The notes beneath the pieces were generated by a model that saw only the letters and a program-made list of their open reading frames with translations, had not been told where the DNA came from and did no database searches. A stretch of DNA of 64,000 nt from Amphiscolops sp. MND2022 (taxonomy: Eukaryota), in the NCBI GenBank assembly GCA_964187785.1, contig OZ076409.1:65598001-65662000 (forward strand), read 5' to 3'. Made by a program: the position numbers and the translations under genes. Position 1 is the first letter of the stretch; every line of letters begins with the position of its first letter. Shown here one piece after another: positions 5,428 to 7,765 of this stretch.

Positions 5428-7765
5428 TCAATCATCAGTGGTTTGACTAAAAGGGATCATGGGTTGGCCACCAATAAATTGCTTGCGGACAATTTCAATT
5501 TGACTGTCACTGAGCTGGGTAGTGCCATCACTGCAGTTACCAATGATTGATTCAGCCATGGTAGAGGGTGACTTTTTTTCGAAATGAACGGCTTGACGTG
5601 TAGGAAAGGAGGGGAAAAATTTGAAGCGGTGCCCCATACGTTTTTGAAGTTCAGGGAAGTCATCTTTATGTTTTTCGGGAATTTCGAAACATGGTTTCAG
5701 TTTGATTTTTTTGTTCATTAGTTTTTTTGAAAACAAGCGGTCGGCTAAATGATATTTGTGATAGATGTACATGAACAGTAAATGCAATACTGTCAAGACA
5801 ACAAAAACAATACAAGTCAAAGTGAAAAGAAACTTTAAAGGGGACATATTGATTAAAGTCGCGGGTGAGCGAGGGTTTCAAAAGTTTCATATCACTAGCT
5901 AGTAGGCGAGCTTTGGCCACTAATTGGTTGACTTCACGAATTCTTGGACTATGTACGAGTTCTTTACGTACTTGTTTCAAAAACTTCACTCCTGCTTCTG
6001 CTTTAGAGTCATATAAGGGCAAATCCTCTAAAGATGGGACTTCCATTATGAGCGATGCTAAAGGATTTGGCAATGAAATTCGCAATTTGATGGCGGGTAT
6101 ATGATTGCAACTTGATAAATCAGACCTGATTTTGATATGCTTCGTCATGATTTGCATGCCACACTCAAGGGTAATAATACATATACGACAGCCTGCAAAT
6201 GATTGTGTTTTGGATGAAGCGGCTGTGGCATGAGATTCGCGAAATATGAAGTCATCATTGACAGATGTTATCAGCCAAATACCGAAACCTAAATTAGTAG
6301 CTTGTTCCGTAGATGGCAAAGAAACTAGGGAAGTGTCACAAACTGAAAGGGCATCAACGGAGGAGTCAAAAAAGAGCGTCGCCATACATGATGAATGACC
6401 CATTTCGGTCTGGAATGTTTATGAACAGACGCGATATTTCGAAGAGCCGAGGCATTGTTCGAATTGTGCTGCGGATAGGACTGACGATTCCATTTGGTCT
6501 TCTGAAATGGCTAAATATGGTGCCTCAATATCCCACTTAAGAGCCAATTGAGGGTCATCGGGGTAAGGCATCGGAATTAGTTTAGCTTCAAATAGTGTGA
6601 AAACGGTTTGTCCAGAAGCCAACGATATACTAAGGGTCATCAAGAATCCTTCTGGCACTGTAACGGCATCAGCGAGCAAACGAGAATCATAGTATGAAAG
6701 AAGGTCGGTCATCGGGATTGCTAACGAAAGGCGATCAGTTGCCTTGCTTTGTTCAATCGCTACTCGTTCCAAGATCACGAGGAGTGATTCCATCGGAATA
6801 AGCGACATTGGTAAATGACCTCGCAAAACAACAGGAATAGAATTAGGAATGTTCATGCGAAAAGCATATAAGGCCGAACGAAAAGCTTTGATGCTAGCAT
6901 GAACCATACTAAGAAGCGAAGATAATGTATCAAAACTGAAATTCAACTGTTGGTTTGAGAATAACATTTGATTACAATCGCGTAAGATGTGAAAGTTATC
7001 TTCGAACGCGTCAAATTGTTCCTGTATGACGGCCCAATTTCGGTTCTGAGTTGCTGACATTTCAGCTTGGATCGCATTGAGTGCGGCGAGTTCGTTTTTC
7101 ACTAAAAAGAAGTTTTCGTCAGTGTTCAGTTGAAGTTCTGTTACAAATTGTGTCAAAACATCTTGGTAATCGGAAAGGCTCCGTATGTTGGCAGCATTGG
7201 CTTGGGCTTGATCGTGACAGCCCCCAAATATTCCCTGAAGACCACAAGAGTCGGAACTTCCCATAGCGATACCTCCTCCGAAGAGTCCAACAGCTGCCAG
7301 AGCAGCGAGGCCTACACCAGCGCCTCGTCGTTTACGCGGTTGTTGTTCAGAAGGTGGACGTAAAAACATTGAGGTTTCATTCCGAATAGTAGTCAGGTCG
7401 GTTTCCGATTCTTGAAGCTCATGGTTGATTTGAAAGAGCATCCAGTTAACGTTGAATCCGGAAGAATTTGACGAAAAGTGACTAGAGAAATTCAGGGGCC
7501 AAAAAATAGAGATCAAGTCCCACATTTTTGAAAGGCGTTGAATCAGTTGTTCAATGTCCGGTTTTAATGTAAATTCATAAGTTGGAAACGGAACGAGAAA
7601 CTCCACACTGATGAATTTTTCGAAAAGCAAGATTTTGTTACGCTCGTTAAATAGTATCCCTTTTTCTAGAAGATCATTAGGATTATTAGAGGCTTCAATG
7701 TTAGATGACCATTGACTAGAAACGGAAGCAGGAGTGAAAGCAAGGTAGGCGAGAAAGAACAGCAT
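5428..7765 (-). CDS. env: Envelope glycoprotein, class I fusion (F-type), about 780 aa; one in-frame stop (6419) and one frameshift (~5825) in this copy
   Basis: Signal peptide MLFFLAYLAFTPASVSS; furin site RKRR followed by the hydrophobic fusion peptide GAGVGLAALAAVGLFGGGIAMG; heptad region; Cys-rich ectodomain; TM 'FTLTCIVFVVLTVLHLLFMYIY'; ~105-aa cytoplasmic tail. Confidence 0.88.

Follow-up and report, generated by a model that had tools for sequence, protein, structure and literature searches.

A probable F-type fusion protein gene in a defective Ty3/gypsy LTR element of an invertebrate genome

Introduction

Ty3/gypsy elements that carry an env gene of the F or the gB type are described from most invertebrate phyla by Chary and Hayashi (eLife 2026, PMC13524379). 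The 'ancient' elements of this survey are told apart by an RNase H that is followed by a 'mini' domain with N-terminal helices and three small strands. As described there, ancient errantiviruses are gag-pol-env Ty3/gypsy elements of non-insect animals, their Env has an F ectodomain, a furin site and a fusion peptide, priming by tRNA-Leu occurs among them and a mini-domain bridge is found after RNase H. The element reported here resembles them in these points (for the host, probably), but the copy studied is not intact and its Env gives no Baculo_F or Gypsy Pfam signal. The same paper states that the mechanism outside Drosophila is unknown.

Env genes like paramyxovirus F are also described for the bdelloid Gypsy-like element TelKA (PMC5408684) and for the env-bearing Gypsy-like elements of Oikopleura (PMC4977317), a combination that our element shares. 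Bdelloid lineages further have a dUTPase between protease and reverse transcriptase and extra ORFs (PMC5408684); our element has a weak dUTPase-like stretch at this position and short antisense ORFs. The TelKA env is about 600 amino acids long and aligns to PF00523 by HHpred (PMC5408684), whereas the Env studied here has about 780 residues, a tail of 110 residues and no Pfam match by HMMER. The literature already contains F-env Gypsy elements from animals other than insects (PMC13524379, PMC5408684), and our element is a divergent further family.

The lokiretrovirus env (PMC7947760) has a leader, an RXKR site, a fusion peptide, a coiled coil, a TM segment and similarity to PF00523, and is in this respect like the Env of our element. 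Unlike the element, Loki (PMC7947760) and Odin (PMC9040795) have a tether and a second RNase H; Loki is found in vertebrates (PMC7947760) and Odin is described without env (PMC9040795). A macrodomain in a retroelement is reported for fish epsilon-like ERVs (PMC4977317, citing Basta 2009). These are Retroviridae with the macrodomain in added ORFs, whereas in our element it ends the Gypsy integrase frame.

Results

The window analysed is a stretch of 64,000 nucleotides, in which env was found as the third ORF of a 14,252-bp Ty3/gypsy LTR element on the minus strand (4741-18992). The 5' LTR (18644..18992, minus strand, TGTCAT...ATGACT) and the 3' LTR (4741..5089, minus strand) are 349 bp long and differ at 2 of the 349 sites, which suggests that the insertion is young. 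The element is flanked by the 5-bp target-site duplication ACGCT (4736-4740 and 18993-18997). Directly after the 5' LTR lies the primer-binding site TGGTGACAGGAG (18632..18643, minus strand), probably for tRNA-Leu, with one mismatch to the tRNA-Leu(CAA) 3' end tabulated in a supplement of PMC13524379. The polypurine tract (...GATGGGAGGAAG; 5090..5109, minus strand) was recognised from its sequence and abuts the 3' LTR. On the element strand both LTRs end in ATGACT, giving TG...CT where TG...CA is usual.

The gag region (16635..17893, minus strand) has about five frame changes by eye and a CX2CX4HX4C knuckle at about 16775-16734. It was assigned by its position and this knuckle because the pieces gave no Pfam capsid match. 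The pol gene (11191..16665, minus strand) encodes an aspartic protease, a weak dUTPase-like stretch, reverse transcriptase, RNase H, a bridge, integrase and a low-complexity linker, with the order PR-RT-RH-IN by Pfam. The RT motif reads FMDD, and FMDDI is present in 50 of 120 relatives. The best PDB sequence match of the RT was Ty3 (E 1.9e-16, 63 bits), and foamy virus Pol reached 58 bits in a long alignment. A single RNase H stands directly after the RT, matches RT_RNaseH and RT_RNaseH_2 and has the acidic motifs by eye. From RH to IN the distance is about 210 residues in three relatives. The bridge was modelled from 13498-14019; its first 80 residues were of low confidence, and the predicted helices are followed by strands at 141-144, 147-153 and 159-164 with a pLDDT of 85-93. 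Foldseek found no match for the bridge model at E<=0.001.

The pol gene is interrupted by frame changes near 15700, 14380 and 14020, located by comparison with relatives, and by a stop at 13126-13128. A run of nine T lies at one of these breaks, and the break near 14020 is without a homopolymer run. Only one nonsense codon and one frameshift had been annotated before. This is correct for env itself, where a single TAA stands in frame (codon 449, 6419..6421) and the frame shifts once near 5825, immediately ahead of the TM segment, but it does not describe the element. Because pol has four further breaks and gag about five, the studied copy is dead and has no working Gag or Pol.

The env coding region starts on the minus strand with an ATG at 7765, ends with the stop at 5430-5428 and spans about 780 codons when its breaks are bridged. 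The N-terminal signal peptide (residues 1-17, 7715..7765, minus strand) was predicted from the hydrophobicity, with a Kyte-Doolittle value of 2.12 for residues 1-11. The furin site and the fusion peptide (residues 144-169, 7259..7336, minus strand) were recognised by motif and hydropathy. RKRR at residues 144-147 (nt 7336-7325) is followed by the Gly/Ala-rich hydrophobic GAGVGLAALAAVGLFGGGIAMG, with a 19-residue hydropathy of 1.75-1.87. When the 448-residue ORF was shuffled 20,000 times, a furin motif directly before such a hydrophobic stretch appeared in 9 cases. After the fusion peptide, HR-A and the central helix (residues 182-314, 6824..7222, minus strand) were assigned from the model helices H182-212, H220-257 and H266-314 and from the heptad hydrophobicity, which at the a/d positions is 0.57 and 0.86, compared to 0.4 elsewhere.

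In the model and the sequence, a Cys-rich beta region with 8 Cys corresponds to the F head domains (residues 438-553, 6107..6454, minus strand). It is followed by the HR-B-equivalent, membrane-proximal helices (residues ~588-640, 5846..6004, minus strand), which were assigned from the model and the heptad stretch. The TM helix (5761..5826, minus strand, hydropathy up to 2.62) is in another frame, with the frame break at its start (~5825). The cytoplasmic tail of 110 residues and the stop (5428..5760, minus strand) complete the gene, and the tail is 86% identical to that of homologue P0002. The leader, the RKRR with fusion peptide, the long helices, the TM segment and the long tail listed in the initial annotation are all present at 7765-5428 by sequence and hydropathy. 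Its placement of the Cys-rich region next to the membrane was wrong: the 8 clustered Cys are about 95-210 residues N-terminal of the TM segment, and the heptad helix (residues ~588-640) lies in between. The env of the studied copy yields at most a 448-residue fragment without an anchor.

The fold was investigated with an AlphaFold model of the first 629 Env codons. The mean pLDDT was 72.7, with values below 50 at residues 1-27, 90-99, 137-226 (containing the fusion peptide) and 257-265. Foldseek against the PDB gave 137 matches at E<=0.001, with a best E of 2.6e-7, and the best 50 of these 137 were all F proteins of pneumo- and paramyxoviruses at low TM-scores of 0.20-0.34. In BFVD, 46 matches were obtained at E<=0.001, with TM-scores up to 0.43. 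The best was an uncharacterised 801-residue protein of abalone herpesvirus (A0A145VUZ2, E 1.5e-19), and next came glycoproteins of invertebrate negative-strand RNA viruses, with baculovirus F at E 2.6e-15. In VIA-align, NDV F was first and the sole chain among 48,161 with a Z of at least 8 (Z 8.4, near the level which that tool calls common; rmsd 4.2, 292 aligned). Coronavirus S2 and the RSV and hMPV F proteins followed, with unrelated helical bundles close behind. In the Foldseek comparison that the initial annotation had proposed as a check, the model matched the F proteins of pneumo-/paramyxoviruses and of baculoviruses, and the class I layout of the F type which it had proposed is backed by all three fold searches. 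Since the fold matches, each of them moderate, combine with the order of the motifs, our results support the prediction that Env is an F-type class I fusogen.

At the sequence level, Env had no match in Pfam by HMMER (including Baculo_F, Fusion_gly and Gypsy env), in PHROGs or in a PDB sequence search. In the nearest Atlas clusters, PF00523 was assigned to 26% and 33% of the members, at a low recognition score. Because Env is invisible to Pfam, profile-based env screens will miss this element family. A PDB profile search listed influenza HA2 N-termini in 15 of 16 rows at E 0.15-1.3, which is not significant. We read this as a resemblance in GLFG plus helix and rejected a kinship to HA2.

Homologues were searched with the Env of the window read with an X at the stop. 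We found 120 homologues of 43-100% identity, nearly all on long ENA contigs, and a profile made from 40 of them reached 2,383 representatives at E<=0.001 and 369 at 1e-30. From the leader region to the TM segment 31 of the 120 were uninterrupted, with R-x-K/R-R in 28 of the 31; many of the other 89 are merely short gene calls. The cleavage site is covered by 37 of 40 aligned rows, as R-x-K/R-R in 32 and R-x-x-R in 5, and is not covered by 3. A precomputed Baculo_F match (PF12259) was present for only 1 of the 120. Because 31 of the 120 are uninterrupted, the element family keeps env; the env of the relatives was read as protein, and infection by the family is a prediction.

Over 644 aligned columns, 30 amino-acid changes are private to the Env of the studied copy, and 12 of these have a negative BLOSUM62 score. 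In two uninterrupted relatives the numbers were 12 (2 negative) and 29 (8 negative). The changes in the studied copy exceed the expectation from two LTR differences, and a defective template copied in trans could account for this. So could a homogenisation of the LTRs, the large uncertainty of a count as small as two, or some assembly error, each by itself.

In IMG/VR, the Env query found no relative, and a query with integrase and macrodomain gave one unrelated weak locus. In the JGI metagenomes, one 3.8-kb contig (L001) had a broken env (825-3170, plus strand) at 52% identity. On this contig an open frame lies within about 450 bp upstream of env in place of a long gap, and the content of the 3.4-kb gap between pol and env of our element was not found on it.

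At its C-terminus the integrase frame carries a TARG1/OARD1-like macrodomain (11209..11565, minus strand). It was detected by phmmer against PDB structures of human C6orf130/OARD1 at E 1.2e-16, and Pfam Macro gave only E 0.089. The alignment contains the TK and G-x-D motifs, in which human TARG1 has its catalytic Lys and Asp. We found no report of a macrodomain in a Gypsy element in the open-access literature. The dUTPase-like stretch between PR and RT was weak at E 0.024, and at 0.006-0.03 in 3 of 19 relatives.

Pol and env are separated by a gap of 3.4 kb with short antisense ORFs, among them three of 103 residues each. The ORF at 9383..9694 (plus strand) resembles an integrase H2C2 zinc-binding domain by an Atlas feature match of 0.91 to a cluster in which 87% of the members carry PF17921; it had no match in Pfam or PHROGs and no BLASTP similarity to the integrase piece of the element itself. 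By eye, the ORF at 8139..8450 (plus strand) is like a small type I membrane protein with a leader-like N-terminus, Cys, two N-glycosylation sequons, a TM-like stretch and a basic tail, and had no Pfam or PHROGs match. The third (10062-10373, plus strand) was without any match. None of 503 proteins compared matched the gap, and it showed no terminal inverted repeats that would indicate a nested DNA transposon.

The window contains a host TBP gene at ~54637-55798 (plus strand) with apparently one intron (~54812-55114, by eye). By identity its nearest named relatives are animals, and it is of a long-branched animal type. Its core has an identity of 81.5-84.8% to the insect cores and to the same degree to those of echinoderms, cnidarians, vertebrates, a mollusc and an annelid, apart from one divergent vertebrate paralogue, which is lower; the 15 insect cores are at least 92% identical to each other. 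Because TBP is equally distant from insects and other animals, and the insects are mutually closer, the host is probably not an insect as judged from this gene. In the TBP tree, the only partners of the window protein are three ENA proteins, with which it shares a long branch (100/99), and 21 of 35 inner branches are open. The non-insect host suggested before is therefore favoured by the identities, but the tree gives no placement.

A second, degraded Gypsy-like LTR element lies at ~20988-23638 (plus strand) between short direct repeats at 20631-20716 and 23832-23917. It has pieces of RT and integrase, and a weak Tudor-like match (E 4.5e-4) after the integrase core. A degraded non-LTR retrotransposon (43740-47512, minus strand) has a PHD/C1-like ORF1, an endonuclease and an RT. 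Fragments at 2862-3897 (minus strand, by eye) resemble the zinc-knuckle/endonuclease region found at the C-terminus of non-LTR elements. Two dispersed non-coding repeat families occur in both orientations with copies 70-95% alike, one at 823-2178, 50349-53060 and 62715-64000, the other at 19957-20619, 41403-42559 and 48639-49343.

Discussion

The gene is very probably the env of an integrated, defective gag-pol-env Ty3/gypsy LTR retroelement in an invertebrate genome, which can be called an 'ancient errantivirus' as Chary and Hayashi use the term operationally (PMC13524379). Two LTRs, a target-site duplication in the range of 4-6 bp, a primer-binding site, a polypurine tract and the Pol order PR-RT-RH-IN speak for Ty3/gypsy. 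The gag-pol-env order with an F-type env and an RNase H followed by a 'mini'-like bridge, with no pseudo-RNase H, correspond to the 'ancient' label. The main text of PMC13524379 mentions neither a macrodomain nor a dUTPase nor antisense ORFs. The motifs of our family were not found in its supplements, a weak result for spreadsheets whose long cells are partly visible, and the family may overlap with the published set. Troyka elements (PMC12440569) were excluded because their CG...CG ends and 3-bp target-site duplication differ from the TG...CT and 5 bp found here; Troyka is also described without env.

An affiliation to the Loki/Odin lineage beside the true retroviruses is very improbable. The lokiretrovirus env is a Mononegavirales-like F as well (PMC7947760), the RT aligns over a long stretch to foamy virus Pol, and the about 210 residues from RH to IN could accommodate a second RNase H. 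Against this, it is the Ty3/gypsy profiles RT_RNaseH and RT_RNaseH_2 that match the RNase H after the RT, and the bridge is modelled with three strands and not as a five-strand RNase H. With its three strands and without a second RNase H, the bridge agrees with the ancient group rather than with Loki or Odin.

For an uninterrupted Env, a mechanism can be proposed by analogy to paramyxovirus F and Drosophila gypsy (in part after the discussion of PMC13524379). The leader would direct the protein into the ER, and it would form a trimer. Furin would cleave the trimer behind R-x-K/R-R, and virus-like particles would carry it as they bud. The fusion peptide released by the cut would then enter the membrane of a neighbouring cell, and HR-A and HR-B would zip into a hairpin. 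The fusion would deliver the RNA core, most likely from the soma to the germline. The proposal of the initial annotation that the family recently was able to infect from cell to cell is only indirectly favoured by the 2/349 LTR differences and by the uninterrupted env of relatives; the studied copy itself is broken throughout.

It is unlikely that env is no longer used between cells, with copying inside the germline and env as a passenger or in another membrane role. The 30 private Env changes, 12 of them negative, compared to 12 (2) and 29 (8) in the relatives, would fit such a passenger and a template that was maybe already env-defective, and 89 of 120 homologues fail the leader-to-TM test, though many as short gene calls. 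Nevertheless, the cleavage site, fusion peptide, Cys and TM segment are all kept in 31 uninterrupted proteins, whose identity goes down to about 45%, and several of these represent clusters of 21-102 member sequences. That the env breaks are assembly errors in a whole genomic copy has only a slight chance to be correct. The LTRs are nearly identical and one pol break lies at the 9-T run, but the element has about eleven breaks, two of them in-frame stops, the ~14020 break is without homopolymer and the radical substitutions in Env are in excess. The truncated 448-residue product is also on record as P0004, though probably from the same assembly. A fusogen or restriction factor domesticated by the host, like syncytin or Iris, is hardly conceivable: the N-terminal frame of 448 residues is open and has a leader, but it is cut off in the middle of the ectodomain, shows decay and is inside a young LTR-bounded element with dozens of family members. 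We retain the env of a defective Ty3/gypsy element as the preferred reading.

A further-reaching, rather doubtful idea is that the family is a large and still-expanding 'complex' enveloped Gypsy lineage from an animal phylum that the survey did not sample, for example the acoels. Such a lineage would combine an F that evades the profiles and is closest in structure to a herpesvirus protein of molluscs, a Pol with an ADP-ribose eraser of the TARG1 type, and antisense genes against the defence of the host. An acoel is a candidate host: acoel genomes are rich in LTR elements and have 37-39% GC (PMC9911081), compatible with the 39% GC found here. Xenacoelomorpha are absent from the genome list of PMC13524379, and acoel names were not found in its text or in its supplements, where long spreadsheet cells are partly visible. 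The open-access literature gave nothing on an endogenous retrovirus env in acoels. If the host belongs to an unsampled early-branching phylum, the element would test the claim that env joined Gypsy before the bilaterian split. If the macrodomain is a fixed trait of the family, it would point to ADP-ribosylation as a defence against retroelements in invertebrates. The F-env Gypsy architecture as such is known, and our finding adds one more divergent family to it.

The predicted fold of Env is like that of pneumo- and paramyxovirus F, baculovirus F and the abalone herpesvirus protein A0A145VUZ2, at 7-16% identity and a TM-score of about 0.4, where no donor can be named. Besides A0A145VUZ2, the BFVD entries Q14W34 and A0A1X9T5E6 of ranid herpesviruses 2 and 3 also match the F-type Env model. 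On the basis of these models, this suggests F-like class I glycoproteins in abalone herpesvirus and in ranid herpesviruses 2 and 3.
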